Source: a virus (taxonomy: Duplodnaviria > Heunggongvirae > Uroviricota > Caudoviricetes). From it: a stretch of 64,000 bases of DNA. Positions 6,750 to 62,141 of this stretch are shown here, piece by piece; position 1 is the first letter of the stretch; every line of letters starts with the position of its first letter. The DNA is taken from IMG/VR virus record IMGVR_UViG_3300028571_000011, one strand, 5' to 3'. The translations under genes were made by a program, and so were the position numbers. The notes beneath the pieces are model-generated. The model was not told the DNA's origin, ran no database searches, and saw only the letters and a list, made by a program, of their open reading frames with translations.

Positions 6750-6778
6750 TTGACTTGTGCTGAGTGATCTGCTACAAG
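6750..6778 (+). promoter_or_regulatory. conserved promoter cassette: -35 TTGACT (6750-6755), -10 TACAAG
   Basis: member of a TTGACT-N16/17-TA..G.-10 family; AAAGCAGTGC upstream. Confidence 0.45.
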
Positions 6779-6784
6779 TTGCGT

Positions 6785-6997
6785 ATGCCGATCAAGCCAA
6801 AGAGTCACGCGCAGGACCAACGCAGCCTTACCCGAAAGGCTGGCAAGTTCACGGCCATGGACATCTGCCCATGCTGCAAGAAGCCTCGTGCTCTGGAGCC
6901 TGCCTACACCGTTTCTGACGGTGGTCGGGTCCGTGATGACTTCGAGTTCGCTGGTGGTTACGTCTGCCTCAAATGCATCGCCGCCAACGCCGCCTGA
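6785..6997 (+). CDS. hypothetical Cys-containing protein
   Basis: ATG 8 nt after the promoter -10; 70 aa. Confidence 0.45.
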   Translation: MPIKPKSHAQDQRSLTRKAGKFTAMDICPCCKKPRALEPAYTVSDGGRVRDDFEFAGGYVCLKCIAANAA

Positions 6998-7018
6998 ACA
7001 GAAACCCAAGGAGTCAAC

Positions 7019-7315
7019 GTGAAAGACCTTCAGCGTTTCAAGGCCCTGTGCAAGGACCCCCGGATCGATCAGGTCAGCGACGAGCGTGAGAGCGCCTCGT
7101 TCCGCAAGGAGGACAACGGAGATGGGATCTGGTTGTACCTGATGCCCGGATGGACTGATCCCACCACCGAGACGCACTGCGTGCACGAGAGCAAGCTCTC
7201 ACAGCTGATCTTCTCCATGAAGAACCTCGAAGTTTGCGAATGCAAGGAGTGCTTGCAGTCCATCGCAGACCGCGCAGCTGCGAAGGCACGAGCAGTCAAC
7301 AAGGCAGCCGCATGA
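7019..7315 (+). CDS. hypothetical protein
   Basis: GTG start with an AAGGAG RBS; 98 aa. Confidence 0.45.
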   Translation: MKDLQRFKALCKDPRIDQVSDERESASFRKEDNGDGIWLYLMPGWTDPTTETHCVHESKLSQLIFSMKNLEVCECKECLQSIADRAAAKARAVNKAAA

Positions 7316-7809
7316 AGAACATGCCGAAGCAAGGGCAGGTGGCCTACTCCTGCCCCGGCTGTGGCAGGAAGTGCACACGGCACGGGATGCAGATCCTTCC
7401 ACACGACTCCGATCCTACGATCGACGAGGAGTGCGCTTGGTCTAACCTGAGGATCCCCCATCCGCTGCAGTTCTCCGAATGGCACGTCGACATCCAGAGC
7501 AAGTTCACCCGCTGGAAAGCCCTGCAGAAAGAGGAAAGCCAGCTGAAGCGCCACTCGCCGAAGGCGAAGCACAGAGTGAACTACTGCTGTGGTAAGATCA
7601 CCTTCCACACCGAGAAGGCGGCACTCGAAGCTGCAGACGAAGCTGGTCGTGACTTCTACTGCCAGATGTTCACCTACCAGTGCAAGAACAAGAACTGGCA
7701 CATGACCAGCCAGTGGCAACACCCGATCACCCGGTCGCTGGTCACCACTTCTATCTCCAGCGGAAGCAAGATAAAGATGAAGCTGATGGGCAGCTTCACC
7801 AATCACTGA
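7312..7809 (+). CDS. hypothetical Cys-rich protein
   Basis: ATG at 7312 overlaps the upstream stop; part of ORF 7234..7809. Confidence 0.5.
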   Translation: MKNMPKQGQVAYSCPGCGRKCTRHGMQILPHDSDPTIDEECAWSNLRIPHPLQFSEWHVDIQSKFTRWKALQKEESQLKRHSPKAKHRVNYCCGKITFHTEKAALEAADEAGRDFYCQMFTYQCKNKNWHMTSQWQHPITRSLVTTSISSGSKIKMKLMGSFTNH

Positions 7810-7845
7810 GAGGAGACACGCAGGTCTACGAACCAAGATGCTGGA

Positions 7846-11984: not shown

Positions 11985-13730
11985 ATGAACATGTCCAACT
12001 ACTCCAAGCACTTCAACTCCAACAAGACGCCGCAGAACGAGCCCATTCCGGGTCGTGACATGGTGCAGAACGCGGCGGGTGGCTTCAACTTCGCCGTTGA
12101 CGACTGGGCACGGCTCCGTCGTTTCCTGATCCTCGGTACCGAGGGTGGTTCCTTCCATCAGAAGGAACAGAAGCTGACGAAGGAGAACGCGCAGGCGGTC
12201 CTTCGCTGCATCAAGACCGATGGTCCACGTGCGGTCAAGGAGATCGTCACCATCTCGGTGGAGGGTCGTGCTCCGAAGAATGACCCTGCGATCTTCGCTC
12301 TGGCCATGGCGCTCAAGCTCGGTGACGAGGCAACTCGCCGCTTGGCTTCCGACGCTGTCCCTGACGTGTGCCGCATCGGCACCCATGTGTTCCAGCTTGC
12401 AGAGGCTGTGAAGGCGTTCGGTGGCTGGGGTCGTACGACCGCTCGTGCATTCGCCAACTGGTACAACAAGCAGACGCCGGACAAGCTGGCGCTCAACCTG
12501 CTGAAGTACCAGCAGCGTGACGGCTGGTCGCACAAGAACTTGCTGTCGAAGTCCCACGCAGGTGGTTCGGCTCCGACGAAGTCTCACGCTGCGATGTTCA
12601 GCTACGTCATGCGCAACGGTGACCTGTCTGCTCGCAAGGTGGAGCGCAAGGTCAAGGGTAAGGTTCTGTCGGTCGGTGACTACAGCGGTCACAGCCGTGC
12701 TGACCTCCCTCGCTTGATTGAGGGCTTCGAGAAGGTCCGTGAGGGCGGTCTCACGGAGAAGATGGTTGCGAAGCTCATTCGTGACTACGACCTTCCTCGT
12801 GAGGTGATCCCGACCCAGTTCTTGAACAGCAAGGACGTCTGGGATGCTCTGCTTCACGCTGGCAAGCTCGGCATGCCCATCGGTGCCCTTGTCCGCAACC
12901 TCAGCAAGATGACGACGATTGGTCTCATCGCTCCCTTGAGCGACGCCACGTCCTTCGTTGCCTCGAAGCTGGATAGCGAGGAAGCCATCAAGCATGGTCG
13001 CATGCATCCCCTGTCCATCCTGCTTGCGTCTCGTACGTATGCACAAGGACACGGCGAGAAGGGCTCGCTCCAGTGGAAGCCTGTTCCTCAGGTTCTCGAA
13101 GCTCTCGACAAGGCTTTCTACCATGGATTCAAGTCTGTGGAGCCCACTGGCCTGAAGCATCTGACCGCTGTGGACGTCTCGGGCTCGATGCACTCCAGCC
13201 GGGTAGCCGGTGGACTGGTAACGAGCGCTGAAGCAGCAGCAGCAGTGGCTCTGGTGACGGCGAACGTGGAAAAGAACCATCACATGGTTTGCTTCACGAA
13301 CGGCTCACAGGGTGCTGGCGAGTACAAGTTCGGCAATGGTGCTTCTCGCTGGAGCCAAGTGAACAGCGGCATCAGCCCCTTCGACATCAACCCGCGCATG
13401 CGGTTGTCGGAAGTGGCAGCGAAGACCCGGAACATGCCGTTCGGCGGCACGGACTGCGCTCTGCCGATGTTGTACGCCCTCAAGAACAAGATTGAGGTCG
13501 ACGTCTTCATGGTGCTGACCGACAACGAGACTTGGGCAAACCCAGAAGTCCACCCGTCACAGGCCCTCAAGCTGTACCGGCAGGAGATGCAGCGTCCCGC
13601 GAAGCTGGTTGTTTTGGCCTTCGAAGCTTCCAACAATACGATCGCTGACCCGAACGACAGCGGCATGATTGACATCGTCGGTCTGGATACGTCCACCCCC
13701 GATTTGATCTCTGCCTTCGTTCGTGCTTGA
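11985..13730 (+). CDS. rsr: Ro60/Rsr ortholog (TROVE domain + C-terminal vWA with DVSGSM MIDAS), Y RNA-binding protein
   Basis: PGRDMVQNAAGGFNF..RFLILGTEGGS.H at the N-terminus; vWA MIDAS at the C-terminus; ATG at 11985 within the listed ORF 11913..13730. Confidence 0.85.
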   Translation: MNMSNYSKHFNSNKTPQNEPIPGRDMVQNAAGGFNFAVDDWARLRRFLILGTEGGSFHQKEQKLTKENAQAVLRCIKTDGPRAVKEIVTISVEGRAPKNDPAIFALAMALKLGDEATRRLASDAVPDVCRIGTHVFQLAEAVKAFGGWGRTTARAFANWYNKQTPDKLALNLLKYQQRDGWSHKNLLSKSHAGGSAPTKSHAAMFSYVMRNGDLSARKVERKVKGKVLSVGDYSGHSRADLPRLIEGFEKVREGGLTEKMVAKLIRDYDLPREVIPTQFLNSKDVWDALLHAGKLGMPIGALVRNLSKMTTIGLIAPLSDATSFVASKLDSEEAIKHGRMHPLSILLASRTYAQGHGEKGSLQWKPVPQVLEALDKAFYHGFKSVEPTGLKHLTAVDVSGSMHSSRVAGGLVTSAEAAAAVALVTANVEKNHHMVCFTNGSQGAGEYKFGNGASRWSQVNSGISPFDINPRMRLSEVAAKTRNMPFGGTDCALPMLYALKNKIEVDVFMVLTDNETWANPEVHPSQALKLYRQEMQRPAKLVVLAFEASNNTIADPNDSGMIDIVGLDTSTPDLISAFVRA

Positions 13731-13735
13731 CTTCG

Positions 13736-13775
13736 CTGACAGGATCAGCTAAAACTGGTCCTGTCAGGTTTGCGT
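13736..13775 (+). terminator. hairpin after rsr (CTGACAGGA...TCCTGTCAG + GTTTGCG)
   Basis: 9-bp stem 6 nt after the stop; weak U tract. Confidence 0.4.
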
Positions 13776-15466: not shown

Positions 15467-15494
15467 TTGACTTCAGCGTAAGTTCTGGTATAAC
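15467..15494 (+). promoter_or_regulatory. sigma70-like promoter TTGACT-N16-TATAAC driving a near-leaderless ORF
   Basis: -10 ends 6 nt before the ATG at 15501. Confidence 0.5.
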
Positions 15495-15500
15495 TAGCAA

Positions 15501-15866
15501 ATGATCACTGCCACCATTCCTGCAGAAGCCATCCCGACCGACCGTCGGGTGTACCGTGCTCGCGGCCATGGTGCAGCAGGCATCGGCGATTACAACCGGC
15601 ACTACGCCAAGTACGTCTCAGAGCCGCTCTGGCTCAACAACTTCGACGAAGCCTTCGAGAAGCTTCGTGAGTCTCTGGCCAACTTCAGCATTGACCTGAC
15701 CAAAGAGTCCTTCAATGCAGAGATCAAGCGTGTCTTGAACTCGAAGAACCTCGATGCCTTCTGCAAGGTCGGTCGCGCTGGTTCTGGTTACAAGCTGGAG
15801 CGTCTTGGCAAGACTCGACTCTACACTTTTCTTTGTCCTCTTTTTGAGTACGATGAAGAACTGTGA
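15501..15866 (+). CDS. hypothetical protein
   Basis: ORF of 121 aa downstream of the promoter. Confidence 0.5.
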   Translation: MITATIPAEAIPTDRRVYRARGHGAAGIGDYNRHYAKYVSEPLWLNNFDEAFEKLRESLANFSIDLTKESFNAEIKRVLNSKNLDAFCKVGRAGSGYKLERLGKTRLYTFLCPLFEYDEEL

Positions 15867-17636: not shown

Positions 17637-17771
17637 AGTTAGAGAAGCAATGTGGTGTGTTTTCTGTTCGGTTCGTAAACTATCTCTTGACTCTCAAGGA
17701 AGAATTCGTTAGAAGGGGTGTATGCAAGTTGACCTCGTCAAGGTGCATGCATTCTAAGGTAGAGGTACGTC

Positions 17772-32036: not shown

Positions 32037-32094
32037 GGCTTCTCAATGCCACGGCGTGACCACACAGTCAATCAGGCTTGCAGTCAATCAGTGC

Positions 32095-32123
32095 TTGACT
32101 TGTTTTGATCTGTGTGCTAAGAG
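32095..32123 (+). promoter_or_regulatory. conserved promoter cassette: -35 TTGACT, -10 TAAGAG (TGC-extended)
   Basis: GTGCTTGACTTGTTTTGATCTGTGTGCTAAGAGT; ATG at 32131. Confidence 0.5.
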
Positions 32124-32130
32124 TAACTGC

Positions 32131-32391
32131 ATGAAGTGCGTGCACTGCGGTTCGCCAGAAGAGATCATCGTCGAGACTGTTCGACACAACGGTACGCCGT
32201 TCGACAACAGCAGCTTCTGTTGCCAGCAGGCTCAGGCTGATGCCGAGAAGGAAGATGAGGCTGACCCGTACGATGACCCGGCGTACCAGAACCGAATGAT
32301 CGCCTTCGCCAAGGCGCTTGGGATGATCGATAGTGATGACACCGGCCCCGGCGACCTGCCCAACAGCCTGAACCCTTTCGACGAAGGTTGA
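32131..32391 (+). CDS. small Cys-containing protein
   Basis: ATG 8 nt after the -10; 86 aa. Confidence 0.45.
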   Translation: MKCVHCGSPEEIIVETVRHNGTPFDNSSFCCQQAQADAEKEDEADPYDDPAYQNRMIAFAKALGMIDSDDTGPGDLPNSLNPFDEG

Positions 32392-33149: not shown

Positions 33150-33177
33150 TTGACTTCTTCGTGTGATCTGATAATGT
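33150..33177 (+). promoter_or_regulatory. conserved promoter cassette: -35 TTGACT, -10 TAATGT
   Basis: AGCTTGACTTCTTCGTGTGATCTGATAATGT. Confidence 0.5.
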
Positions 33178-35266: not shown

Positions 35267-35272
35267 AGCCAT

Positions 35273-38353: not shown

Positions 38354-40645
38354 ATGAAGCTCGAAGAAGCCACGTCGAAAGAACAAGTCGCTCAAGCCCT
38401 AGCTGACGGCGACGAAGAGCTTCGCGATAGCGTTGATACCTACTTGGAGGAGGTACGGAACTCCTTCATGAGATCCGATGCTCGGTATGGTGAAGAAGAA
38501 GAGCCATCAGAGGTTACGTACCTCTTTGACGACGACAAGTTCGTAGACAAGGTGATTGTCGAAAGCAAGAGCACGAGCTTCGACCTGTCTCGTGTTCCGC
38601 GCGACAACGTAGTCAGAGAACTGCAGACAGAGCTTTCCTCAAGTACCTCGGTCCATGAGCGGAGGACCTCCTTCAAAGGGTATGGTCCATTCGCCATTAG
38701 CTCAGGCGATCGAGATAGCCCGTCACTGGAATGGAACTACCCACTACCACGGAATAGGTCCTACTTCTTCAGCGACGACCACTTTGACGTTGATGGTTTG
38801 AGACTGAATCATCTGGTTCCAGATGACCTAGTCAAGAGTTTCTGGAAAGATATCGCGACAGACATTGACTCTAGCAATCAAATCGAATGGGGGGATGATA
38901 CTGCTCTGGACCAGAACACAGGCTACGGGCCTGATGAGCCTCACTACTTTGGTCCTTTCTCGGAAGAGAAATGGATTGAATTCTGCCGGGACATCATCAG
39001 GCAGCACATTAATACGCTGGTTGAGTCTGATCCCACGGGCGCTTACACCCTGTTCCTGAACTCGGCACGGTCGGAGACTGGCACTGATACTCCAAGCGGC
39101 GAGCTACTGGCGAAGGCAAAGAAGGTTGCAGAGGACGAAGGTGACGACTTTCCCACTGAGGATATCCTAGACTACGTAGTCAAGTACTTCGAAGCTGATG
39201 ACAGAGACGAGCGAGTTGCCGTCGTTGCTGAGCTTGACCGGAAGCTCATCACTACCTATGAACCAGAGAAGATCGTCACTCTGTACCTTGAAGCAGTTGA
39301 GGACCTTCTGAACCGACGTGACGCGACCGTTGAAGGTATCCTGCGTAAAGGTGAGCGAGGCCAAACTGAACTCCAAATATGGGAAGAGTTGATGGCTGCG
39401 AAGTTCCGTGACAGAGATGAACTCAGAGAGACAGCCGAAGGTTGGTTCGAAGACTGGGAGGGGAGAAGTATCCCAGACGTGAGTGGTCTCGGTCGTGACA
39501 TCGTCAACGTCATCGAACGGTACATCTTCTCGAAAGATCCAGAGAAGGCTATCAACACGTTCATTGATCAGGTGGCAGCAGTCATTCAGACCAACGTCCA
39601 GCTGGGCCAAGAAGGAGCAGACGTCGTCAGGAAGGCTCTTAGAGACGGCAAGTCTTTCAGCAAAGACGACGTGAACAGAATGGCATTCGACTGGGGCGGT
39701 GGCTTCAATAAGGGTTCCACTAAGGAAACCCTCGAAGACTTCGTCTACACGAATACAGCAGCTGGCGAACCTATCGTTGCGAAGTTCATTGAAGACATCA
39801 TCGCTGTCTTGAGCAGCAAGGATTCAGCTGGACCGGAGGGTGCTGCCATTGTCCGCAAGGCAATTGAGGAGAAGCACTTCAGCAAGAAGAACATCTTCAA
39901 GATGGCCCTACGCTGGAGGAGAGGGAAGGGCCAGCATGAGATCAAAGACGAGCTTGAGGACTACGCTCTCGCCATTCTCGACGGCGGTGATGGCATTAAA
40001 GAATCCAATGTGCTTGAGACAATCACAGTGGACGAGTTGAAGAAGCTCGGTATCACCAGTGGTCCTCTCTTCGAGGAAGCTCCTCTGACGCTCGTGAACC
40101 TACCAGCGAAGGACCTCGCTGAGGAAGGCCGACGCATGCGCCATTGCGTTGGCGATGCCCCCAGCTATGCTCGTGAGGTCAGGAACAAGACCAAAGAAAT
40201 CTGGTCACTCCGCACACGGAACAACAAACCAATCTTCACACTGGACATCGACACAAACCTCCACAAGAACAAGAAGCTACCAGCTGACGATACTCCAGAG
40301 CTTTCTGCCAAGAAGGAGCACAAGCGTGCCGAGTTCGTCAAGCAGCTGAAGGGCAAAGCCAATCGCACTCCGGGTCTGGACCGGGCCTACGACACGAAGG
40401 TTACCAAACCAGATGAAGTGGTGCTGTGGAAGTACTTGCTGAAGAAGCTCCACATTGCGCCTGACCAAGTGCATGACTTCACGGCCTGCAACCTGCCGAT
40501 GCCATCAGGTGCACCACAGGTTCAAGCTTCCTTGTCGCAGCAGGTGTCGTTGAGCTTGAGCTTCATTGCTGACCGGCTGAGTTCGTTCGCACCGCGTCAA
40601 CTTGTTGCCGCCCTCGATGAAGCTGCCGAGTTGCTAGCCGAGTAA
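38354..40645 (+). CDS. large protein (763 aa) with a C-terminal HCVGD...SLRT.NNKP domain shared with 25556..27004
   Basis: RRMRHCVGDAPSYAREVRNKTKEIWSLRTRNNKPIFTLDI near the C-terminus; acidic N-terminal region. Confidence 0.6.
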   Translation: MKLEEATSKEQVAQALADGDEELRDSVDTYLEEVRNSFMRSDARYGEEEEPSEVTYLFDDDKFVDKVIVESKSTSFDLSRVPRDNVVRELQTELSSSTSVHERRTSFKGYGPFAISSGDRDSPSLEWNYPLPRNRSYFFSDDHFDVDGLRLNHLVPDDLVKSFWKDIATDIDSSNQIEWGDDTALDQNTGYGPDEPHYFGPFSEEKWIEFCRDIIRQHINTLVESDPTGAYTLFLNSARSETGTDTPSGELLAKAKKVAEDEGDDFPTEDILDYVVKYFEADDRDERVAVVAELDRKLITTYEPEKIVTLYLEAVEDLLNRRDATVEGILRKGERGQTELQIWEELMAAKFRDRDELRETAEGWFEDWEGRSIPDVSGLGRDIVNVIERYIFSKDPEKAINTFIDQVAAVIQTNVQLGQEGADVVRKALRDGKSFSKDDVNRMAFDWGGGFNKGSTKETLEDFVYTNTAAGEPIVAKFIEDIIAVLSSKDSAGPEGAAIVRKAIEEKHFSKKNIFKMALRWRRGKGQHEIKDELEDYALAILDGGDGIKESNVLETITVDELKKLGITSGPLFEEAPLTLVNLPAKDLAEEGRRMRHCVGDAPSYAREVRNKTKEIWSLRTRNNKPIFTLDIDTNLHKNKKLPADDTPELSAKKEHKRAEFVKQLKGKANRTPGLDRAYDTKVTKPDEVVLWKYLLKKLHIAPDQVHDFTACNLPMPSGAPQVQASLSQQVSLSLSFIADRLSSFAPRQLVAALDEAAELLAE

Positions 40646-40653
40646 ACCAGCGC

Positions 40654-40682
40654 TTGACTTAAGCGACGGGACATGCTAGTGA
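40654..40682 (+). promoter_or_regulatory. conserved promoter cassette: -35 TTGACT, -10 TAGTGA
   Basis: CGCTTGACTTAAGCGACGGGACATGCTAGTGA. Confidence 0.4.
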
Positions 40683-40749
40683 TCTCTCATGAGCATGTTC
40701 AAATGTCGATTGCAACGAGGACATCAGCAAAACTCTGTGTGATCAGATC

Positions 40750-44457: not shown

Positions 44458-44488
44458 CCTCAACTGATCGCTTGCAGTAAAGCAGTGC

Positions 44489-44516
44489 TTGACTTGTTTG
44501 TGTGATCTGATAAGGT
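44489..44516 (+). promoter_or_regulatory. conserved promoter cassette: -35 TTGACT, -10 TAAGGT (TGA-extended)
   Basis: TAAAGCAGTGCTTGACTTGTTTGTGTGATCTGATAAGGTA; ATG at 44523. Confidence 0.55.
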
Positions 44517-44522
44517 ACTCGT

Positions 44523-44846
44523 ATGACGAACTCACAAACCATGCTGCTGACGACGGTCGTTGACCAGCGCCTCATCGAACTGCGCCTGAGCCTCAGTGAC
44601 GCGAAGCGCTACCTCGAAGCCGCCAGTGAGGCTGCCCAGACGACCATCAAGGACAACGAGCGTCAGGCAGCCTTCGATCATCTCGAAGCGATGCGCTGGA
44701 AGTTCCATGACGCCAGAGTCAAGCTCGAACGGTACGAAGCCGAGAAGTGCCAGCGTCAAGTCCCACTCGTGAGGGTCACCGCCGATCAGGGCTGGGATGA
44801 CTCAATCCATGACTGGTGCTGCGGTGAGGTCAGCTGTGACTGGTAA
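44523..44846 (+). CDS. hypothetical protein
   Basis: 107 aa, 7 nt after the -10. Confidence 0.5.
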   Translation: MTNSQTMLLTTVVDQRLIELRLSLSDAKRYLEAASEAAQTTIKDNERQAAFDHLEAMRWKFHDARVKLERYEAEKCQRQVPLVRVTADQGWDDSIHDWCCGEVSCDW

Positions 44847-45475: not shown

Positions 45476-45943
45476 GTGATCGAAACGCTGATTCAGCATC
45501 TGGAGCGACAGACCATCGACAACATGCGCAAGTGTGGGCTTGAGGTGACAGCCATTACGAGGCTGATCGTGATGCCTCGCTCTCAGCAGGTGATGGGCCT
45601 CGACGAGGACCTGATGCGACTGGTGGCTGATGCTGTGGTCGTCGACCCGTCCAAGTCTGGGAAGATGACAAAGGAGGAGCGCAAGCTTCACGGGCGAACC
45701 TACTCCCTGAGAGAGGGTGAGGTTGTGTGGGCTGTGTGCTCTGGGAAGGGGCACACCACTGGTCGCGTGCATAAGAAAGGCTTCCAGCCATTCATCTCCA
45801 GAGAAGACGCTTGCGCTTACGCCGGGTTCAAAGCCGGGTCTGGAGTCCATCTGGCCACGAATTGGTATCAGCTGCCGACACGTGACCCATTGGTGTCGCT
45901 GCCCCTTCACTGGTCAGTCGTGCAGTATGATCTCGTGCAGTAA
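45476..45943 (+). CDS. hypothetical protein
   Basis: GTG start with a GGAGAG RBS. Confidence 0.45.
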   Translation: MIETLIQHLERQTIDNMRKCGLEVTAITRLIVMPRSQQVMGLDEDLMRLVADAVVVDPSKSGKMTKEERKLHGRTYSLREGEVVWAVCSGKGHTTGRVHKKGFQPFISREDACAYAGFKAGSGVHLATNWYQLPTRDPLVSLPLHWSVVQYDLVQ

Positions 45944-45951
45944 AGCATAGC

Positions 45952-45979
45952 TTGACTTATCTGTGTGATCTGATAAGCT
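45952..45979 (+). promoter_or_regulatory. conserved promoter cassette: -35 TTGACT, -10 TAAGCT
   Basis: TAAAGCATAGCTTGACTTATCTGTGTGATCTGATAAGCT. Confidence 0.5.
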
Positions 45980-46448: not shown

Positions 46449-46743
46449 GATCGATTCTGAGGCTGAACTGCGGCTGCTTGAGGCTGAGGGAGTGATCCAA
46501 TCACTTCAGGAACGTGTCAGCTTCGCAGAGAAGAAGCTGGATGAAGCGACAGCGAAGCTGGCTTTGGAGACGGCTGCCACTGCGGCAACCATCGCCAAGG
46601 TCAAGGAGAAGACGAAGCGGGCTGGTCAGATGCAGGGCGAGCTTCGTTTGCTCCTGAAGGATTCCCTCAAGGTCTTGACCGAAGACCGGCACCCAACAGT
46701 GATTGCGCTTCGCGAACGAATCCAGACCGCGCTTGACAAGTAA
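46430..46743 (+). CDS. coiled-coil protein
   Basis: ATG at 46430 inside ORF 46216..46743. Confidence 0.45.
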
Positions 46744-46765
46744 CCACATTCCAATAGGAGTTCAC

Positions 46766-47197
46766 ATGCCGAAGCGTAAGAACGAAGACGAAAACCAACT
46801 GTCGACGCCGAAGAAGGAGGACACGCTCAAAGCCAAAGTGGCCTACTTCATCCAGAGGTATGGTGACGACGTCATCAGCATCGAAGACGCTGTCCGTACG
46901 CCGATCCTTCTTGCCAACCAGATCGGTGGTGCAATCAGGACCAATGCTATCTCGTTGGGCATCGCGACTGCTGCCATGCATTCGCACTACCCTCCGAAGG
47001 AAGCAATGGAGGACTCCCATGAATTCAGGAATGAACTCAGCTTCCTTCAGGACCTCCTGAACCGCTGCGTCGGCTCGCACTTCGACAACATGGTCAGGGA
47101 TGCTGACCGAGCCAGCGCCAACGTCCTCAGTGCATTTCTGGCAGGCACGGACCACAATGTCGGAACGCACAATGCCGGAACCGGTCTCGACGAATAA
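46766..47197 (+). CDS. hypothetical protein
   Basis: CCAATAGGAG RBS, the same RBS block as at 47226 and 49327. Confidence 0.5.
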   Translation: MPKRKNEDENQLSTPKKEDTLKAKVAYFIQRYGDDVISIEDAVRTPILLANQIGGAIRTNAISLGIATAAMHSHYPPKEAMEDSHEFRNELSFLQDLLNRCVGSHFDNMVRDADRASANVLSAFLAGTDHNVGTHNAGTGLDE

Positions 47198-48210: not shown

Positions 48211-48224
48211 TCGTCAACAACAGC

Positions 48225-48252
48225 TTGACTTCTCGGCCAATAGTGCTAAGAG
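48225..48252 (+). promoter_or_regulatory. conserved promoter cassette: -35 TTGACT, -10 TAAGAG
   Basis: CAGCTTGACTTCTCGGCCAATAGTGCTAAGAGT; ATG at 48259. Confidence 0.5.
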
Positions 48253-48258
48253 TCTTGC

Positions 48259-48687
48259 ATGACGATTCATCTGCCCACCACGATCAAAGGCACGCTGAAG
48301 ACGTACTGCGGCTCTGCCGCTGATCAGGACCAGATCACGACAAGCCTCGAAGCTTACAACTGCGAGGCTTGTCGCAAGGAGAGTGACCTGATTGACTCCA
48401 TCCTTGACGACACCATGGCTCTTGTTGATGGCGTGTTCACCATGCACACCGACAAGGAAGTGGTCTTCATGCTGATGGATGTCATCTACATGAACCGACA
48501 ACCCGACCGCTTCAGTGGTGATGGCTTCAATCCGGGTCCGGGTCCGATGACAGGGACCTTTGCCATCTGGGACAACGCCATCGGCGACTGTTCGATCCAA
48601 GTGAGCTTCTCACCGCCTGACGAGGGAAGCATCCGTGTCACGAATGCTTTTCGCTACAAGCTCCCACCGAAGGCGTCGAGTGTCTAA
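48259..48687 (+). CDS. hypothetical protein
   Basis: 142 aa. Confidence 0.5.
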   Translation: MTIHLPTTIKGTLKTYCGSAADQDQITTSLEAYNCEACRKESDLIDSILDDTMALVDGVFTMHTDKEVVFMLMDVIYMNRQPDRFSGDGFNPGPGPMTGTFAIWDNAIGDCSIQVSFSPPDEGSIRVTNAFRYKLPPKASSV

Positions 48688-51689: not shown

Positions 51690-51709
51690 AGGGGCACGTA
51701 AAGCAGAGC

Positions 51710-51738
51710 TTGACATGCGATGAGTGATCTGGTAAGAG
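51710..51738 (+). promoter_or_regulatory. conserved promoter cassette: -35 TTGACA (consensus), -10 TAAGAG
   Basis: TAAAGCAGAGCTTGACATGCGATGAGTGATCTGGTAAGAGT. Confidence 0.55.
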
Positions 51739-51744
51739 TAAGTG

Positions 51745-51978
51745 ATGAACACGAACACCAAGCTCGTCGCTGCCAAGTACCGCGCCCACATCAACAACGA
51801 TGGTTGGGGTGTCTACATGTTCTGCTTTGACTACGACACGAACAGCTTCGAGAAGTCGGGCAGCTGTGTCAGCCGCTTCAAGATGACGGCTGAGAAGGCA
51901 GCGGCTTCCGCTGCGGCTTTTCAGGCGAAGGAAGACAAGTCCGTGGCGAAGGAAAACAAGCGTCTCGGGTTCAACTGA
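51745..51978 (+). CDS. hypothetical protein
   Basis: 77 aa, 7 nt after the -10. Confidence 0.45.
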   Translation: MNTNTKLVAAKYRAHINNDGWGVYMFCFDYDTNSFEKSGSCVSRFKMTAEKAAASAAAFQAKEDKSVAKENKRLGFN

Positions 51979-52737: not shown

Positions 52738-52985
52738 TGGAGATTCCCATGTCGGCTGTCCAGAAAAACCGTGACCCAATCTTGGATGTCATGATGATCC
52801 TCATGATCTTCTCCACCATGGTCTTCTTCATTGTTGCCGTGTCACTCGTGACAGCCACAGCAATCGTTGACCTCCAGCGGCAACACCAGCAGCAATCCTG
52901 CAAACCATGCTCTTGCACACCAGCTGAAGCTGTTGAAGCCACCGAAGTGGACCTCGTTCCTGTCGAAGTTGTTCCTTTTCCATAA
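52737..52985 (+). CDS. small membrane protein
   Basis: hydrophobic core ILDVMMILMIFSTMVFFIVAVSLV. Confidence 0.4.
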   Translation: MEIPMSAVQKNRDPILDVMMILMIFSTMVFFIVAVSLVTATAIVDLQRQHQQQSCKPCSCTPAEAVEATEVDLVPVEVVPFP

Positions 52986-52993
52986 AGCAGTGC

Positions 52994-53022
52994 TTGACTA
53001 CCGACGAACGATCTGATAGGAG
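52994..53022 (+). promoter_or_regulatory. conserved promoter cassette: -35 TTGACT, -10 TAGGAG-like
   Basis: TAAAGCAGTGCTTGACTACCGACGAACGATCTGATAGGAG; ATG at 53029. Confidence 0.45.
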
Positions 53023-53028
53023 TATCTG

Positions 53029-54489
53029 ATGACTTTTCCAATCTCTCCCACTCTTCGTGTCATGCTGGAAGCTATCGTCGCTTCTGGTGGTCGTCCTGCC
53101 ATCATCGGCGGCTCCGTTCGTGACTGGGTCTTGGGTCTGGAGCCCAAGGACATCGACGTCGAGGTCTACGGCTTGGACGTGGCTGACTTGGAACTCGCCC
53201 TGTCGAAGTTCAAGGTTGACGCTGTCGGTCGTGCCTTCGGTGTCTTCAAGGTGACCATCGAAGGTGAGACGTTTGACGTTTCGCTTCCTCGTCGCGAGTC
53301 CAAGGAAGGCCATGGCCACCGTGGCTTCATGGTGTCCTCTGACCCGACGATGACTCCCGAAGAGGCTGCTCTTCGACGTGACTTCACGGTCAACACTCTT
53401 GGCTGGGACTTCATCGACGGCAAGCTGATGGACTTCCACGGCGGCATGGCTGACATCAAGGCCAAGGTTCTGCGTCACACCAGCCCAGCTTTCGCTGAGG
53501 ATCCTCTTCGTGTGCTGCGTGGCTGTCAGTTCGCTGGTCGCTTCGGCTTCACCATGGACGGAGACACCATCGACATGTGCCTCAGCCTCACTGAGGAGCT
53601 TCGTACGCTCCCTGTAGAGCGGCTGTGGACTGAGTGGGTCAAGCTCCTGACGAAGAGCCCCAAGCCCTCTGTGGGCCTGACAGCGCTGGTTGAGACCGGT
53701 GCCATCGAGGTCTTCCCCGAAGTGAAGGCGCTGCTGTACGTTCCTCAGGAGCCTGAGTGGCATCCAGAAGGTCAGGACCACCCGTTGGGCAGTCTCTGGG
53801 TGCACAACTGCATGGTCACGGACATGGCTGTTCGTGTGCTGGACGATGATGGTGTCACTGACGCTGAGGAGCGTTTGATCATCATCCTCGGTGCCTTCTG
53901 TCACGACTTCGGCAAGCCTGCCACGACTGTGTTCGAGCGGGATCGCTGGCGGTCTTTGGCCCATGAGGAAGCCGGTGAAGCTCCGACTCGAAGCTTCCTG
54001 ACCCGGATTGGTGCGCCGCACCACATCATCGAGGCAGTTGTGCCTCTGGTGATGCAGCACCTCAAGCCTTTCCACTTGGCTCGTGACAAGGCTAGCAGTG
54101 GTTCTGTCCGTCGCTTGGCGCTGAAGGTTCCTCTGGAGCGTCTGTGTCGTGTGGGTCGTGCTGACTTCTTGGGTCGGACCACTCCTGACGCTCTGGCCAT
54201 CACGGACAGCCGTGAGGTTGAGGAGACGAAGTGGCTTCTGGAACGGGCAATCGAACTTGCGGTTCGTGACTCTGCTCCTCAGCCTCTCGTCATGGGTCGT
54301 CATCTGATCGATGCTGGCATGAAGCCGAGCCGAGAGTTCGGCGAGGTCCTCAAACGAGCGTTCGAGTACCAGCTGGACGGCTTCATCTTCGACGAGGAGT
54401 CGGCCCTTCGCTTCGTGAAGGAGAAGGTTGTGGTGACGGATGATGGCCATGGGCAGGTTGTGGATGGCTGGACCGGTACTTGCGGCTGA
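53029..54489 (+). CDS. cca: CCA-adding tRNA nucleotidyltransferase with a C-terminal HD domain
   Basis: IIGGSVRDWVLGLEPKDIDVEV polymerase-beta head; RRDFTVNTL; HD motif FCHDFGKP. Confidence 0.85.
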   Translation: MTFPISPTLRVMLEAIVASGGRPAIIGGSVRDWVLGLEPKDIDVEVYGLDVADLELALSKFKVDAVGRAFGVFKVTIEGETFDVSLPRRESKEGHGHRGFMVSSDPTMTPEEAALRRDFTVNTLGWDFIDGKLMDFHGGMADIKAKVLRHTSPAFAEDPLRVLRGCQFAGRFGFTMDGDTIDMCLSLTEELRTLPVERLWTEWVKLLTKSPKPSVGLTALVETGAIEVFPEVKALLYVPQEPEWHPEGQDHPLGSLWVHNCMVTDMAVRVLDDDGVTDAEERLIIILGAFCHDFGKPATTVFERDRWRSLAHEEAGEAPTRSFLTRIGAPHHIIEAVVPLVMQHLKPFHLARDKASSGSVRRLALKVPLERLCRVGRADFLGRTTPDALAITDSREVEETKWLLERAIELAVRDSAPQPLVMGRHLIDAGMKPSREFGEVLKRAFEYQLDGFIFDEESALRFVKEKVVVTDDGHGQVVDGWTGTCG

Positions 54490-55915: not shown

Positions 55916-56194
55916 ATGGCGAAGAAGCGTGGCGATCTACTTTCTGACATCAAGCAATCCAAAGATGCACTCATCGCATCAGAACGGCGCGGCAGAAAAG
56001 CTGTTCAACGCCTGAGGGGCATCGAGAAGATCTTCGAGACGCTCATACCCAAGATGAGAAACTGGTCAGACCTCCCTGTGGCTGACGAGAGCATTGCTCG
56101 ATGTCTGACAACTGGTGAATGTCGAAGGATCATCAAGGCCCTTGAAGCACCAGAGTCAGACGCCGAGCCCACAGAAGATAAAGCTTCTGCTTGA
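55916..56194 (+). CDS. hypothetical protein
   Basis: ATG inside ORF 55400..56194, downstream of the previous CDS. Confidence 0.35.
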   Translation: MAKKRGDLLSDIKQSKDALIASERRGRKAVQRLRGIEKIFETLIPKMRNWSDLPVADESIARCLTTGECRRIIKALEAPESDAEPTEDKASA

Positions 56195-56224
56195 CCTGAA
56201 GGCAGTAGCCAGTAAAGGACAGCT

Positions 56225-56425
56225 ATGTCGCGTATTTATGTGATCGATGTTCCATGCTCGGAGTGCAGGGTCGGTACGGGTGAGCAATGTGTGAGGTCGA
56301 ATGGTCGACCGTTCTCCCGTGTGACGGGCATGACCGACCGACCGTACCAGTACCACCAGCCGCGCCGACTTCTCTACAACACCGTCAAAGCTCAAGTGCT
56401 CCTCGGCCTGACCGCTTCTGCATAG
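56225..56425 (+). CDS. small zinc-ribbon-like protein
   Basis: CSEC...GEQC. Confidence 0.4.
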   Translation: MSRIYVIDVPCSECRVGTGEQCVRSNGRPFSRVTGMTDRPYQYHQPRRLLYNTVKAQVLLGLTASA

Positions 56426-56431
56426 TATCAC

Positions 56432-56459
56432 TTGACTTGTAGGCCACAACTGATAAGGT
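56432..56459 (+). promoter_or_regulatory. conserved promoter cassette: -35 TTGACT, -10 TAAGGT (TGA-extended)
   Basis: CACTTGACTTGTAGGCCACAACTGATAAGGT; ATG at 56467. Confidence 0.55.
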
Positions 56460-56466
56460 TCAACGC

Positions 56467-56661
56467 ATGAGCACGGACCAAAAGATGAAGATTGCGGGAC
56501 TTCGGAAGCGCTGGCAGGAAGCTGAGAGGAAGGCTGATGAAGCTCAGCTTCGCGCTGACCAAGCTGTCGGTCTCGCAGAGAGCTTGTCTATCGAGGCAAC
56601 CACCCTGCTTGAAGAGTATGAAGAAGCCTGTGCCGAAGCCACGGAAGAGGAGGACGAATGA
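56467..56661 (+). CDS. small coiled-coil protein
   Basis: 64 aa. Confidence 0.45.
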   Translation: MSTDQKMKIAGLRKRWQEAERKADEAQLRADQAVGLAESLSIEATTLLEEYEEACAEATEEEDE

Positions 56662-60135: not shown

Positions 60136-60141
60136 GTAACT

Positions 60142-61170
60142 ATGACCAAAGAAATTGATGCTGAACAGATGGTTGCCGAGCTTCGACTTGCTGCTGAGCA
60201 GGTTATGACTCATTGTCTCCAAAACACGACATGGGCGTTTGAGGCTCGACAAGCAGTAAGTGGGCTGCAAGCAGCCCTAGACAAGTCTGCTCCCATCGCC
60301 GGTCGGTGGTGTCTGGCGAGCGAGCGGGATGAGGCGGTGCGCGAACGTGACGACGCCCAAGCGTGCTTCCAAAAGGCTTGGACGGTGGCGACCGAGGCCA
60401 ACACCCGCGCTGATGTGTCTGACGCCGCTGCACGCGCACTTGGTGTCGACTTCGATCGTGTGCTGCGCGAGTGCAGCGCCGCCACCGCCCGCGCTGAGAG
60501 GGCTGACGTGATCTGTGTCGATCAGTACAAAGAGTACAGCAACGCAAAGGAGCGCTGGCGAGTCGAGTTTGCGGCAATGTTTGAGCGGATGAGTAAGGCA
60601 TCAGACCGTGTTGCCATCTGGCGACAACACTGTACCTGCGGCACGAGCCACGGCCAGCCAAAAGCATACACGGTAGACCAGCTTCGTAGTGCTTTCGCTG
60701 AAGCCTGCTTGTCCCCTGAAACGCCGTTCTTCAAAGAGTGGCCTGCCATTGCCGCTGCCGTTGAACGTGCACTGGCGAGCGAAAACAAGCGAAAGGAGAT
60801 GGTCGCTGAGGTGTGGGGCGTTGAGATGCGCAACGGCGGATGGTTGGGCCTCGGTGCGGCACTGACCGGGTCAGGCTCGTCAGTCGACATCGTCAAGGCA
60901 CACCGCTTCTCGACAAAGGAGGAGGCTGAGAAGGTGGCGAGTGAATTCTCCTTTGCTGGCGGGATGGCAAAGCGTATCGACGGCGAAGCTGTTGTCAGAA
61001 TCGATGAACTCGCCAAAGAGCGCGATATCGCAAACGCAAACGCTGTTGCATGGGAGGCACGTGCTGAGAAAGCGGAGGCGGTTGTTGAGAGGTGGCGCGA
61101 CGAAGCCGTGATGCGCGAACGCAAGGTGGACGAGTTGACCATCCGCGCCGTCGCCGCCGAGCGCACATAA
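60142..61170 (+). CDS. Ala/Arg-rich hypothetical protein (compositional outlier, higher GC)
   Basis: 342 aa; GC visibly higher than its neighbours. Confidence 0.45.
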   Translation: MTKEIDAEQMVAELRLAAEQVMTHCLQNTTWAFEARQAVSGLQAALDKSAPIAGRWCLASERDEAVRERDDAQACFQKAWTVATEANTRADVSDAAARALGVDFDRVLRECSAATARAERADVICVDQYKEYSNAKERWRVEFAAMFERMSKASDRVAIWRQHCTCGTSHGQPKAYTVDQLRSAFAEACLSPETPFFKEWPAIAAAVERALASENKRKEMVAEVWGVEMRNGGWLGLGAALTGSGSSVDIVKAHRFSTKEEAEKVASEFSFAGGMAKRIDGEAVVRIDELAKERDIANANAVAWEARAEKAEAVVERWRDEAVMRERKVDELTIRAVAAERT

Positions 61171-61237
61171 AAGGCGATCCGTCGCCTCGCTGTGACCTTC
61201 ACTGTGACACATGTGCGGAGAAGGCTGAGGAGAAATC

Positions 61238-62104
61238 ATGAACACTGCCGTCGTCATCTACCACAAAGACTGCCCAGATGGGCTCACAGCCGCCGTTGCG
61301 GCATGGCTGAAGCTGAAGGACACCGCTGTCTATATCCCGAGGCACTACAACGAGCCACGCGACGACGACGCCTACAGGGGCAAGGACGTCTACGTCTTGG
61401 ACTTCTCATTCTCGTTGGAAGCGACACGACGGGTCGATGAAGTGGCCAAGAGCCTGACCATCCTCGACCACCACAAGACGGCTTTCGACAACCTGAATGG
61501 CACGAAGTACGCGGAGCGCCTTCGCATGGATCAGTCCGGCGCGCGTCTGGCGTGGGAGTTCTTCCATCCCGGCATCCCGTGCCCCAACATCGTCGACTAC
61601 GTCGAGGACAACGATTTGTGGCGGCACAAGCTCCCGCACTGGGAAGAGGTGAAGGTTGCTGGAGAGATGGTGTCCCTCAAAGACCCGGACGCAATCAACC
61701 GGTGGGCGGCTTTCGCTGACCGGTTGGCCAACGACTTCAACGGCGTTGTCGTGCAGGGCACAGCCATCGTCGAGTACCGCAACATCCTCATCCAGCGCAT
61801 GTGCAATGAACCCGGCTTCGCGCTCTTGGCAGGCCACAAGGTTCCCTGCGTCAACACCGGAAGCTGGCAGTCCGAGGTCGGCAACCTCCTGAGCAAGGAG
61901 CATCCGTTCGCGATCATCTGGCGCGCGGACAAGGAGGGGCGCTTCCTCTACTCCCTGCGCTCCGACAACACCCGGCACGAAGCCGTTGACGTCTCTGAGG
62001 TGGCCAAACTCTTCGGCGGCGGCGGGCACAAGAATGCAGCTGGCTTCACCAGCAATGCACCGCCCATGATGGTGAAACCAGACTCGGTCATGGTGCGTTC
62101 GTAA
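61238..62104 (+). CDS. DHH/DHHA1 phosphoesterase (NrnA-like nanoRNase / pAp phosphatase)
   Basis: DHH motif LDHHKT; Asp-rich N-terminal motifs; DHHA1 GGGGHKNAAGF. Confidence 0.8.
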   Translation: MNTAVVIYHKDCPDGLTAAVAAWLKLKDTAVYIPRHYNEPRDDDAYRGKDVYVLDFSFSLEATRRVDEVAKSLTILDHHKTAFDNLNGTKYAERLRMDQSGARLAWEFFHPGIPCPNIVDYVEDNDLWRHKLPHWEEVKVAGEMVSLKDPDAINRWAAFADRLANDFNGVVVQGTAIVEYRNILIQRMCNEPGFALLAGHKVPCVNTGSWQSEVGNLLSKEHPFAIIWRADKEGRFLYSLRSDNTRHEAVDVSEVAKLFGGGGHKNAAGFTSNAPPMMVKPDSVMVRS

Positions 62105-62112
62105 AGAATAGC

Positions 62113-62141
62113 TTGACTCTGGGCCGCATGCGTGCTAGCTA
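62113..62141 (+). promoter_or_regulatory. conserved promoter cassette: -35 TTGACT, -10 TAGCTA
   Basis: TAAAGAATAGCTTGACTCTGGGCCGCATGCGTGCTAGCTATGT. Confidence 0.45.

Follow-up and report, generated by a model that had tools for sequence, protein, structure and literature searches.

The window, by which we mean the whole stretch of 64,000 nucleotides analysed here, is part of a genome of about 136 kb and, judged from its sequence, comes from a large metagenomic phage whose cultured relatives are only distant. It has a GC content of 54%, encodes 27 tRNAs and a tmRNA, and contains Ro-like and CCA-adding genes as well as an ADP-ribosyltransferase gene (28763-30130). Megablast against a cultured-phage collection returned no close relatives, and the tmRNA had no match there; the top protein match to cultured phages (Vi1-like and Rhizobium phages) is at 33% identity. 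The closest cultured relatives, all distant, have Gram-negative hosts. The nearest bacterial homologues of the CCA enzyme are about 60% identical and carry proteobacterial labels (Rubrivivax or Deltaproteobacteria MAGs). Hints to the host are limited to these labels and to the bin of one related contig. That contig was binned with a Bacteriovoracaceae MAG and is probably mis-binned.

A short promoter-like cassette recurs on the + strand of the window. Every site is a gap between co-directional genes; the cassette takes up the whole intergenic gap, usually with the upstream stop codon inside it, and precedes runs of small genes that point the same way and have no known function. The minus-strand gene blocks lack the motif. 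The 13 sites listed in the preliminary description are all real, with TTGACT or TTGACA at exactly the position given in 13/13, but its figure of about 13 was too low: four more members (13727, 15467, 46733 and 56191) bring the total to about 17. The additions at 13727 and 15467 are firm, those at 46733 and 56191, which lack the extended -10 TGn, are weaker, and 17687 is a possible further site. The element at 15467 had been set apart as a separate leaderless promoter; it is indeed of the leaderless type (ATG gap 6), but it is a firm member of the same family.

In the cassette at 6737..6787, an upstream arm GGTAAAGCA is followed by the -35 hexamer TTGACT (6750-6755), TGc and the -10 hexamer TACAAG (6773-6778; 29.7 bits in the weight matrix described below), and an ATG at 6785, after a gap of 6 nt, opens a 70-aa ORF that runs to 6997. 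The arm of 32082..32133, AGTCAATCA, is complementary to TGCTTGACT at 8/9 positions; here the -35 is at 32095, the -10 is TAAGAG (32118-32123) and the ATG at 32131 (gap 7) opens an 86-aa ORF. At 35226..35275, AGTAAAGCT, an arm containing the TAA of a CheY-like gene, precedes TTGACT-16-TGaTAAGGT and the ATG at 35273 (gap 6) of a 51-aa ORF (32.5 bits). The cassette at 44476..44525 reads AGTAAAGCA-G-TGCTTGACT, with -10 TAAGGT, an ATG at 44523 (gap 6) and a 107-aa ORF (32.5 bits), and is kept in the uncultured relative L003 at 8158; likewise, 48212..48261 (arm CGTCAACAA, with GTCAA; -10 TAAGAG; ATG 48259, gap 6; 142-aa ORF) is kept in L003 at 10975. Further copies lie at 51697..51747 (TTGACA-17-TGgTAAGAG; ATG 51745, gap 6; 77-aa ORF), at 52981..53031 (TTGACT-17-TGaTAGGAG; ATG 53029, gap 6), where the gene opened is that of the CCA-adding enzyme (486 aa), and at 56419..56469 (TTGACT-16-TGaTAAGGT; ATG 56467, gap 7; 64-aa ORF). 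At 62100..62151, CGTAAAGAA, an arm with the TAA of a DHH phosphoesterase gene, precedes TTGACT-17-TGcTAGCTA and an ATG at 62149 (gap 7; 67-aa ORF); this copy scores only 13.8 bits. The cassette at 40641..40691 (-10 TAGTGA; ATG 40689, gap 6) is followed only by a 17-codon remnant, since the window lacks about 260 bp that L003 has after this ATG; the L003 orthologue heads a 70-aa gene.

Three cassettes are followed by a leader with a ribosome site: 33137..33177 (-10 TAATGT; leader of 19 nt with AAGGAG; ATG 33197), 33652..33692 (-10 TATAAG; leader of 32 nt with GGAG; ATG 33725; TAA of the upstream ORF in the arm) and 45939..45979 (-10 TAAGCT, then gtcttcaac; leader of 22 nt with GGAG; ATG 46002). 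The -10 and leader start of the last of these are similar to promoters of the distant phage L010. The leadered member at 13714..13755 (-35 TTGACT, 13727-13732; -10 TAAAAC, 13750-13755; 27.7 bits) lacks both TGn and the arm; the TGA of the Ro-like gene lies inside its -35, and YrlA-like RNAs, a tRNA block and the tmRNA lie downstream. Also without an upstream arm is 15467..15503 (TTGACT-16-TGgTATAAC; ATG 15501; 121-aa ORF; 20.4 bits). The member at 46733..46768 (GCTTGACA-16-TAGGAG; ATG 46766, gap 5; 19.5 bits) is ambiguous, having neither TGn nor arm, and 56178..56227 (TTGACC-16-TAAAGG; ATG 56225, gap 6; 66-aa ORF; 19.4 bits) has the upstream gene's TGA inside its -35. Neither of the two has TGn, and they could be ordinary ribosome sites that a -35 precedes by chance. 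TAGGAG, the hexamer at 46733, also serves as the ordinary ribosome site of the genes at 47239 and 49342. The possible weak member at 17674..17715 (GTAAAC-N7-TTGACT-17-TAGAAG, without TGn) falls below the matrix threshold and lies upstream of an HNH endonuclease gene (17772-18356).

The core elements described earlier are borne out. TTGAC is present in 17/17 sites (sixth base T in 14, A in two, C in one), the spacing to the -10 is 16 bp in nine sites and 17 bp in eight, and TGn occurs in 14/17, being absent at 13727, 46733 and 56191. T-12 and A-11 are found in 17/17, while positions -10 to -7 of the hexamer vary (TACAAG, TAGTGA, TAGCTA, TATAAC); the -10 hexamers agree with TATAAT at only 3/6 positions. 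T-7 is present in only 5/17; in 10/12 of the remainder the next position is T, giving T at -7 or -6 in 15/17, a compensating pattern (Fisher P = 0.03). A generic scanner of the E. coli type misses all cassettes. Conservation extends beyond the standard sigma-70 contacts, to GC (-37/-36), the arm (-47 to -43) and GATCTG (positions -19 to -14). The upstream TAAAGCA block had been said often to contain the previous stop codon, and the TAA of TAAAGC does close a long open frame in seven cassettes; at 13727 and 56191, however, the stop is the TGA inside TTGACT.

Such an arrangement is not expected by chance: the + strand holds 14 matches to TTGACN-N13/14-TGnTA and the - strand 0, whereas first-order Markov simulations average 0.31 matches and never exceed 3. 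We also scanned both strands with a two-block weight matrix and compared the scores with 20 shuffles. Members score 19-32 bits, except for the 13.8 bits of 62113, the best shuffle score is 15.9 bits, and the scan of both strands found no additional site. An independent repeat finder retrieved the cassettes as families D5, D6 and D8, with lengths of 35-52 nt.

The motif is also conserved where its surroundings have changed. In L003 (85-89% DNA identity), the -35, TGn, the -10 and its distance to the ATG are all unchanged, while the spacers differ: in three orthologous cassettes 0/66 motif positions are substituted vs 11/82 others (P = 0.001). In L020, whose CCA enzyme is 73% identical, the promoter-N7-ATG junction is kept together with the first 26 CCA codons, the hexamer of this orthologue being TAAGCT. 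The exact cassette pattern had 0 matches in IMG/VR, a vWA-like protein query found no relatives there, and GTAAAGCNNNGCTTGACT gave 66 single matches in IMG/VR, about the chance rate, with the rest of the promoter absent from all; a metagenome pattern scan yielded two short contigs, and a scan of L001 and L002 found no cassette-like promoter in either.

An ATG lies 5-7 nt past the hexamer in 13/17 cassettes and at the possible site 17687; the background probability of an ATG at this distance is 0.05 (binomial P = 3e-14). The 7-10 nt proposed in the preliminary description did not hold: the distance is 6 nt at 10 sites, 7 nt at three and 5 nt at one. Because the hexamer ends so close to the ATG, the first transcribed base should be the A of the start codon in these 13 cassettes, giving a leaderless mRNA. 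The earlier prediction of short or leaderless mRNAs is thereby sharpened, with 13/17 sites predicted to be strictly leaderless and the rest, at 13727, 33150, 33665 and 45952, to give leaders of 19-32 nt, 3/4 with a GGAG ribosome site. The start codons themselves appear sound: (i) an independent gene call chose the same ATGs for all seven leaderless-type cassettes in its range, (ii) the ORFs opened are 51-486 aa long, with the exception of the remnant at 40654, and (iii) the N-termini align from M1 with L003. The start codon is ATG in 13/13, vs ATG 37, GTG 5 and TTG 2 in other genes, a difference that alone is not significant, and a pyrimidine stands at -1 in 10/13 leaderless-type sites vs 20/44 other genes. 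A ribosome-site-like -10 hexamer is found in 9/13 sites next to an ATG vs 0/4 leadered ones (P = 0.03), which would fit a dual use of the hexamer as promoter and ribosome site; we regard this idea as weak because the test is a small-sample one and TAAG also starts the -10 of leadered promoters in distant phages.

In most cassettes the TAAAGCA block and the -35 together make up an inverted repeat, GT(A/C)AA-N7-TTGAC, with the block as its left arm; related phages carry the repeat as GTCAA-N6-TTGAC. Complementarity between arm and -35 averages 5.2/9 positions vs 2.2 at 190 other TTGAC sites, and GT[CA]AA-N5-8-TTGAC occurs 12 times vs 0.4 expected; among the relatives it occurs six times in L020, three in L003, once in L016 and twice in L021. 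The inverted copy sits one helical turn upstream and is kept in the relatives despite altered inner sequence and spacing. Phage operators that overlap a -35 include dimeric repressor sites with half-sites of about 5 bp one helical turn apart. The interrupted palindrome GT(A/C)AA-N6/7-TTGAC, 17-19 bp long and with the -35 as its right half, resembles them, but differs in that one half-site is a consensus -35 and that the window holds no cognate protein that we could find. The inverted copy just upstream of the -35 is most simply read as a putative binding site of a dimeric protein that would control the class, although the symmetry might instead serve the polymerase itself, one half-site being a consensus -35. 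A divergent promoter from the inverted -35 was discarded, the bottom strand having no -10-like element at 16-18 nt in 11/11 cassettes. A search of the window ORFs for a DNA-binding regulator fitting the inverted repeat found none; the only sigma-70-region-4-like match, at 10011-10703, is the N-terminus of a PD-(D/E)XK homing endonuclease, and a response-regulator match at 34841-35230 is a receiver domain alone. A literature search on GTCAA/TTGAC inverted repeats in phage promoters found nothing relevant.

We thus propose, with a probability of roughly 0.7, that the about 17 copies form one class of strong -35/TGn/-10 promoters, read by the host primary (sigma-70-type) RNA polymerase holoenzyme, mostly leaderless and presumably early. 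The tests made at the sequence level, apart from that for T-7 of the hexamer, agree with the sigma-70-type phage promoter class with short or no leaders first suggested. Motif, statistics, geometry and conservation are observed; that the class is early and depends on host sigma-70 is what we infer, as are the start site, the translation mode and the part played by the inverted repeat. In this large lytic phage the promoters would drive the small genes of the rightward arrays, the genes for tRNA repair and one block of RNA genes. This downstream gene content and the lack of the motif in minus-strand gene blocks indirectly suggest an early, pre-replicative class. The 13 leaderless mRNAs would be bound by ribosomes via their 5'-terminal AUG, and the other four cassettes would yield the leadered transcripts. 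No terminators lie between cassettes, and the same genes are therefore probably also internal cistrons of longer transcripts; on such read-through RNAs the G-rich hexamers TAAGGT, TAGGAG and TAAAGG may double as ribosome sites.

One of the closest known parallels is that of the T4 early promoters, which combine a UP element with -35, TGn and -10, and are read by the unmodified host sigma-70 holoenzyme (PMC2988021). As in T4, there are many copies in the presumed early region of a large lytic phage, the three core elements occur together, extra positions are conserved beyond the host consensus, and the phage encodes an ADP-ribosyltransferase, as T4 does with Alt. The sequences differ, the -35 being TTGACT here and GTTTAC in T4 and the -10 being TAAG-like vs TATAAT, and an inverted -35 copy takes the place of T4's A/T-rich UP element. 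T4 early transcripts have 5' leaders, unlike those predicted for most copies here. As a marker of a T4-like programme, the T4 late promoter TATAAATA had 0 matches.

Alternatively, the cassettes could form a middle class that depends on a phage factor binding the inverted repeat or a TGCTT motif, and not on unaided host holoenzyme, like the sigma appropriation by MotA/AsiA in T4, where middle promoters replace the -35 by a MotA box, TGCTTtA, with its centre at -30 (PMC2988021). Conserved positions outside the sigma-70 contacts (-37/-36, -47 to -43, -19 to -14), a -10 that is weak by E. coli standards and the likeness of TGCTTGA to the MotA box core TGCTT (PMC2988021) would all fit such a class. 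We nevertheless consider it unlikely: the cassettes have a consensus -35 at 16-17 nt spacing, which T4 middle promoters lack, TGCTTGA spans -38 to -32 and is thus centred near -35 rather than -30, L020 keeps GTCAA/TTGAC but not TGCTT, and the search of the window ORFs gave no HTH regulator, whether MotA-like, AsiA-like or other.

Short repeated regulatory cassettes that contain an early promoter and are dispersed between small, variable genes also recall PeSL, the mobile early promoter plus stem-loop of T4-type phages (PMC2839356, PMC4122927), and the cassettes could accordingly be recombination modules that mainly drive gain and loss of small genes, promoter activity being secondary. Besides the many near-identical copies of 40-50 nt amid small genes of unknown function, one L003 indel begins 14 nt past a cassette ATG, and L020 has the 5' end of the CCA gene in triplicate, with one copy joined to the promoter. 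The cassettes are not PeSL elements, however, because they have no hairpin or terminator: no stem-loop or terminator adjoins them, terminator-like sites are not enriched, and the upstream 60-mers fold at about background energy (-14.3 kcal/mol). Nor is there a clear tie to indel boundaries, a cassette lying at just 1/7 real synteny breaks with L003, the single relative compared, and we hold this explanation to be quite improbable. An eighth apparent break, a 1.4-kb insertion at cassette 45952, is a run of N in an L003 scaffold gap. That the "-10" is a ribosome-binding site, the block being a translation signal and TTGACT having another role or none, is very improbable: TAAGGT, TAGGAG and TAAAGG do pair with the anti-Shine-Dalgarno like other genes' sites (-4 to -6.8 kcal/mol) and lie 5-7 nt from the ATG, but in four members 19-32 nt lie between the block and the ATG, and three of these have a GGAG of their own, the L020 orthologue has TAAGCT, and what stays constant is TTGAC, a spacing of 16-17 nt, TGn (in 14/17) and TA, whereas the ribosome-site-like positions -10 to -7 vary.

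Under the proposed promoter class, precedents exist for its leaderless messages. In Deinococcus-Thermus, leaderless mRNAs arise where a -10 element adjoins the ORF (PMC12340547), lambda cI is leaderless from PRM (PMC10491246), and most middle and late mRNAs of phiYS40 have no leader (PMC3594737); the mapped transcripts of phiKZ and AR9 are not leaderless (PMC8244752, PMC5312081). The cassettes share with leaderless systems a -10 that ends a fixed few nt before the AUG, a transcript with no room for a ribosome site and the use of AUG only. Unlike in those systems, this geometry is combined here with a strong -35 and TGn, in a presumed early class of a phage distantly related to T4-like and Vi1-like phages. 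One might go further and view palindromic -35 operator, -10 abutting the AUG and dual-use hexamer as one architecture of the clade (the window, L003, L020, L021 and L016), although we consider this rather doubtful. GTCAA-N6/7-TTGAC would then be the operator through which a dimeric factor switches the early class as a whole, the intergenic gap would be reduced to the promoter alone, and the hexamer, a -10 on DNA and a ribosome site on read-through RNA, would provide two translation modes per gene. Along with the tRNAs, tmRNA and CCA enzyme that the phage itself encodes, this could be part of a takeover favouring leaderless phage messages, as has been proposed for phiYS40. If the leaderless class itself is confirmed, the phage would offer a natural system to study how, during infection, translation of one gene is balanced between the leaderless and the ribosome-site-led mode.

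The basic finding is ordinary; a whole class set for leaderless mRNAs and the inverted -35 copy are less so. Large phages routinely carry early promoters in many copies. The conserved inverted copy points to a regulator, or to a mode of RNA polymerase engagement, not yet known. The motif also marks exactly where a dozen genes without known function start, and supplies a search pattern for this uncultured clade, in which L021 carries another leaderless-type promoter.

Seventeen promoter cassettes, each named here by the first base of its -35, lie on the plus strand of the window, at 6750, 13727, 15467, 32095, 33150, 33665, 35239, 40654, 44489, 45952, 46733, 48225, 51710, 52994, 56191, 56432 and 62113; a possible weak site is found at 17687. 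The preliminary description had listed 13 cassettes, and TTGACT or TTGACA is indeed present at every one of those positions. The family is real and highly non-random: a scan of the window for TTGACN-N13/14-TGnTA returned 14 matches on the plus strand and none on the minus strand (Markov simulations, mean 0.31, maximum 3), and a repeat finder independently yielded the cassettes as families D5, D6 and D8. With a two-block weight matrix, 16 members scored 19-32 bits and 62113 scored 13.8 bits, the ceiling in 20 shuffled sequences being 15.9 bits, and the same matrix found no further sites on either strand of the window. The least certain members are 46733 and 56191, which are devoid of TGn; TAGGAG, the hexamer of 46733, also serves genes 47239 and 49342 as a simple ribosome site.

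The cassette consensus reads gTAAAGCa..GC-TTGACT-T...(16-17 nt, end often gaTCTG)-TAagnn-t.....ATG, where TTGAC, T-12 and A-11 are constant across all cassettes and GC occupies -37/-36 in 15/17. T-7 is present in just five of the 17, but 10 of the 12 others have a T one position further on, a compensating pattern (Fisher P = 0.03) that has the look of a -10 element under constraint, not of a ribosome site. The -10 hexamers match just 3/6 positions of the E. coli consensus, and a generic E. coli-type promoter scanner detected none of the cassettes. In extended -10 promoters, TGn makes up for a weak -10, and by analogy it presumably compensates for the poor hexamers here. A perfect 9-bp inverted repeat, CTGACAGGA...TCCTGTCAG (13735-13743 / 13759-13767), flanks the -10 of promoter 13727 and could be an operator particular to that promoter.

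Counted from the last -10 base, the next ATG lies 6 nt away in 10 sites, 7 nt in three and 5 nt in one, where the background chance of an ATG at 5-7 nt is 0.05 (binomial P = 3e-14). The short or leaderless mRNAs proposed in the preliminary description thus fit the geometry, except that the gap is 5-7 nt instead of 7-10 nt and that four cassettes (13727, 33150, 33665 and 45952) have leaders of 19-32 nt. Three of these four carry their own GGAG or AAGGAG site, so that the promoter block can be separated from the start of translation. Bacterial polymerases mostly initiate 7 nt past the -10 hexamer, which places the predicted +1 of the leaderless-type cassettes at the A of the ATG (among them 6785, 15501, 32131, 35273, 44523, 48259, 51745, 53029, 56225, 56467 and 62149, all on the plus strand). 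The start codon is ATG in all 13 leaderless-type genes, whose ORFs span 51-486 aa; an independent gene caller picked the same ATG for the seven cassettes in the part of the window that it covered, and alignments to the proteins of L003, a relative, run from the first methionine. A pyrimidine precedes the ATG in 10/13 of these genes vs 20/44 other genes (P = 0.06), which is only suggestive but fits the preference of transcription starts for pyrimidine-purine. Predicted transcripts show weak folding in their first 60 nt (mean about -9.8 kcal/mol, n = 17, vs -14.3 for the background). Packing is tight: as had been noted, the upstream block often holds the previous stop codon, the TAA of TAAAGC ending a long open frame in seven cassettes, while the TGA within TTGACT is the stop of the upstream gene at 13727 (the Ro-like gene) and 56191. 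In leaderless-type cassettes, the promoter fills essentially all the sequence from the upstream stop to the next ATG.

In the most likely mechanism, the host primary-sigma holoenzyme would bind the -35, TGn and -10 and start at the A of the AUG, and this 5'-terminal AUG would be bound directly by ribosomes, as is established for mRNAs that have no leader (PMC12340547, PMC10491246). The stretches between cassettes show no enrichment of terminator-like sites, which makes it probable that upstream transcripts read through them. On such RNA the cassette genes would be internal cistrons about 45 nt past the previous stop, and the G-rich hexamers TAAGGT, TAGGAG and TAAAGG could serve as ribosome sites: their anti-Shine-Dalgarno pairing is about equal to that of the sites of other genes, and a ribosome-site-like hexamer occurs in 9/13 cassettes beside an ATG vs 0/4 leadered ones (P = 0.03). 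Given that TAAG also opens the -10 of leadered promoters in two distant phages (L010 and L013), and that the orthologue of the TAGGAG hexamer in the relative L020 is TAAGCT, it is just possible that the hexamer doubles as -10 and ribosome site. From gene content and the absence of the motif in the minus-strand blocks (18.5-25.7 kb and 30.1-32.0 kb), we infer that the cassettes form an early class.

A second feature is an inverted copy of the -35. The upstream arm and the -35 form the palindrome AGTAAAGCAGTGCTTGACT (arm core GTAAA), and AGTAAAGCA-G-TGCTTGACT is palindromic over 19 bp, apart from a single mismatch. Over the 17 sites, the arm is complementary to the -35 at a mean of 5.2/9 positions, vs 2.2 at 190 other TTGAC sites of the window, and shifting the axis lowers the value to 0.7-3.3. 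In cassettes 32095 and 48225, GTCAA replaces TAAAGC, restoring a perfect complement of TTGAC. The window has 12 copies of GT[CA]AA-N5-8-TTGAC (0.4 expected), and the pattern is also found in the relatives L003 (three), L020 (six), L016 (one) and L021 (two), five of the six in L020 being GTCAA-N6-TTGAC at its sigma-70-like promoters; it was absent from the distant phages L010, L011, L013, L014 and L015. We infer that the inverted repeat is a protein site, a putative operator that overlaps the -35 and would be bound by a dimeric factor; a search among the window genes gave no candidate regulator. Back-to-back promoters were dropped because the bottom strand of the cassettes has no -10-like element, and an RNA hairpin appeared, on inspection of the sequence, too weak to matter. 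Just 5' of cassette 32095, AGTCAATCAG occurs twice, 16 nt apart (32066-32091), in the divergent gap beside a minus-strand gene starting at 32036; the bottom strand there reads TTGACT-N17-CATTGA-N6-ATG, which may represent a divergent leaderless promoter, though a weak one.

L003 (DNA identity 85-89%, proteins about 75% identical) keeps all three comparable cassettes, with no substitution at 66 positions of the arm core, -35, TG, -10 and ATG vs 11/82 elsewhere (P = 0.001). Motif statistics, anatomy, ATG spacing and this conservation together support the earlier reading of a sigma70-type phage promoter class with short or no leaders. About 260 bp of L003 (window 40689-40786 vs L003 4725-5047) are missing from the window, leaving a 17-codon remnant behind promoter 40654 and shortening the next gene (83-95 aa vs 128 aa in L003). 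In L020, whose CCA enzyme is 73% identical to that of the window, a promoter, GCGCTTGACA-N17-TAAGCT-N7-ATG, still adjoins the opening 26 codons of the CCA gene, even though a tRNA and other insertions have split the gene in that genome; a full copy lies 1 kb downstream. The 5' end of this gene is in triplicate at L020 8967-11488 (26 codons at 9003, 48 codons at 9479, full at 10073), and a tRNA gene (9072-9145) is inserted behind the first copy. L021 has another leaderless-type promoter at 1382, whose ATG agrees with the gene call. In the more distant L010, L013 and L015, sigma-70-like promoters recur as well, but each phage has its own kind, leaders measure about 20-30 nt and ribosome sites are strong. 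Promoter repeats of the early type are thus a general feature of these phages, whereas the leaderless setting and palindromic -35 mark one clade. The cassette of L015 (a phage of GC 46%), TTGACTgctcaat...TAYGATgcgtgtgt, recurs at 3108, 4190, 5478, 6713, 9943 and 14423, with long leaders and strong ribosome sites.

The cassettes would work like T4 early promoters, which unite all promoter elements (PMC2988021), but their element sequences differ, an inverted -35 stands where T4 has an A/T-rich UP element, and most would lack a leader. The same leaderless geometry is known from Deinococcus-Thermus (PMC12340547), from lambda cI and from middle and late phiYS40 genes (PMC3594737). Large phages do not generally show it, since the transcript maps of phiKZ and AR9 contain no leaderless phage mRNAs (PMC8244752, PMC5312081). 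T4 middle promoters were rejected because a true -35 is present and TGCTTGA would have to sit about 5 bp further downstream to serve as a MotA box. PeSL elements (PMC2839356, PMC4122927) were rejected because the cassettes have no stem-loop; of the seven synteny breaks vs L003, the one relative compared, just one is located at a cassette.

The window (GC about 54%, 49-60% across 2-kb windows) encodes 27 tRNAs, a one-piece tmRNA (14847-15262), a Ro/TROVE-like protein (11913-13730), a CCA-adding enzyme (53029-54489), RNA ligase, SPFH, DHH phosphoesterase and ADP-ribosyltransferase domain proteins, and long arrays of small genes without known family. A search of 50,697 cultured phage records found no near match; an 865-aa vWA-like protein shares just 33% identity with its counterparts in Vi1-like (Ackermannviridae) and Rhizobium phages. 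Metagenomic contigs, the longest of 136 kb, carry the same sequence. This gene content, the distant cultured relatives and the contigs identify an uncultured large lytic phage; L020 has a T4 rIIB-like gene. The ADP-ribosyltransferase domain protein (ART-PolyVal, E = 8e-25, 28763-30130) is reminiscent of Alt of T4, an enzyme that modifies RNA polymerase and raises the activity of early promoters. A weak Macro-domain match (E = 4e-4, under Pfam's cut-off) lies at 4405-4878. PcfJ-like domains occur in two large proteins (25556-27004, also with LRV/HEAT repeats, and 38354-40645) that have relatives in L003, L020 and L021. A CheY-like single-domain receiver (E = 2e-12, 34841-35230) lies directly 5' of cassette 35239 and has a 188-aa relative in L021. 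The first long ORF (1-1320) contains an 84-nt direct repeat of 76% identity (597-680 and 873-956).

Beside the Ro-like gene, two matches to the Y RNA-like family YrlA (13891-13997 and 14058-14195) score 20.8 bits and 35 bits (E = 6e-6), below the gathering score of 69. The second forms a tRNA-like unit in permuted order, its T arm and CCTCCCC-ACCA 3' end (14062-14092) coming before the matching GGGGAGG 5' end and D arm (14168-14195). These features suggest that the phage carries a module of Ro and Y RNA, with promoter 13727 as its probable driver. Four endonuclease genes, one PD-(D/E)XK with an N-terminal HTH and three HNH, lie in or beside the tRNA arrays (10011-10703, 16815-17237, 17772-18356 and 27728-28486), a location suggestive of homing endonucleases. 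At 17292-17322 and 17606-17636, two pieces resemble tRNA 3' halves and were left uncalled by ARAGORN. Between tRNA genes, a spacer unit made of a 33-nt block, GAGCCGAAYRCGACYGAGGGTTACYT, then a 27-nt block, CCCCTCAACCGCAATCCCTTGCTCATT, is repeated at 9047-9119, 10778-10845, 14100-14162, 14431-14463 and 16471-16503.
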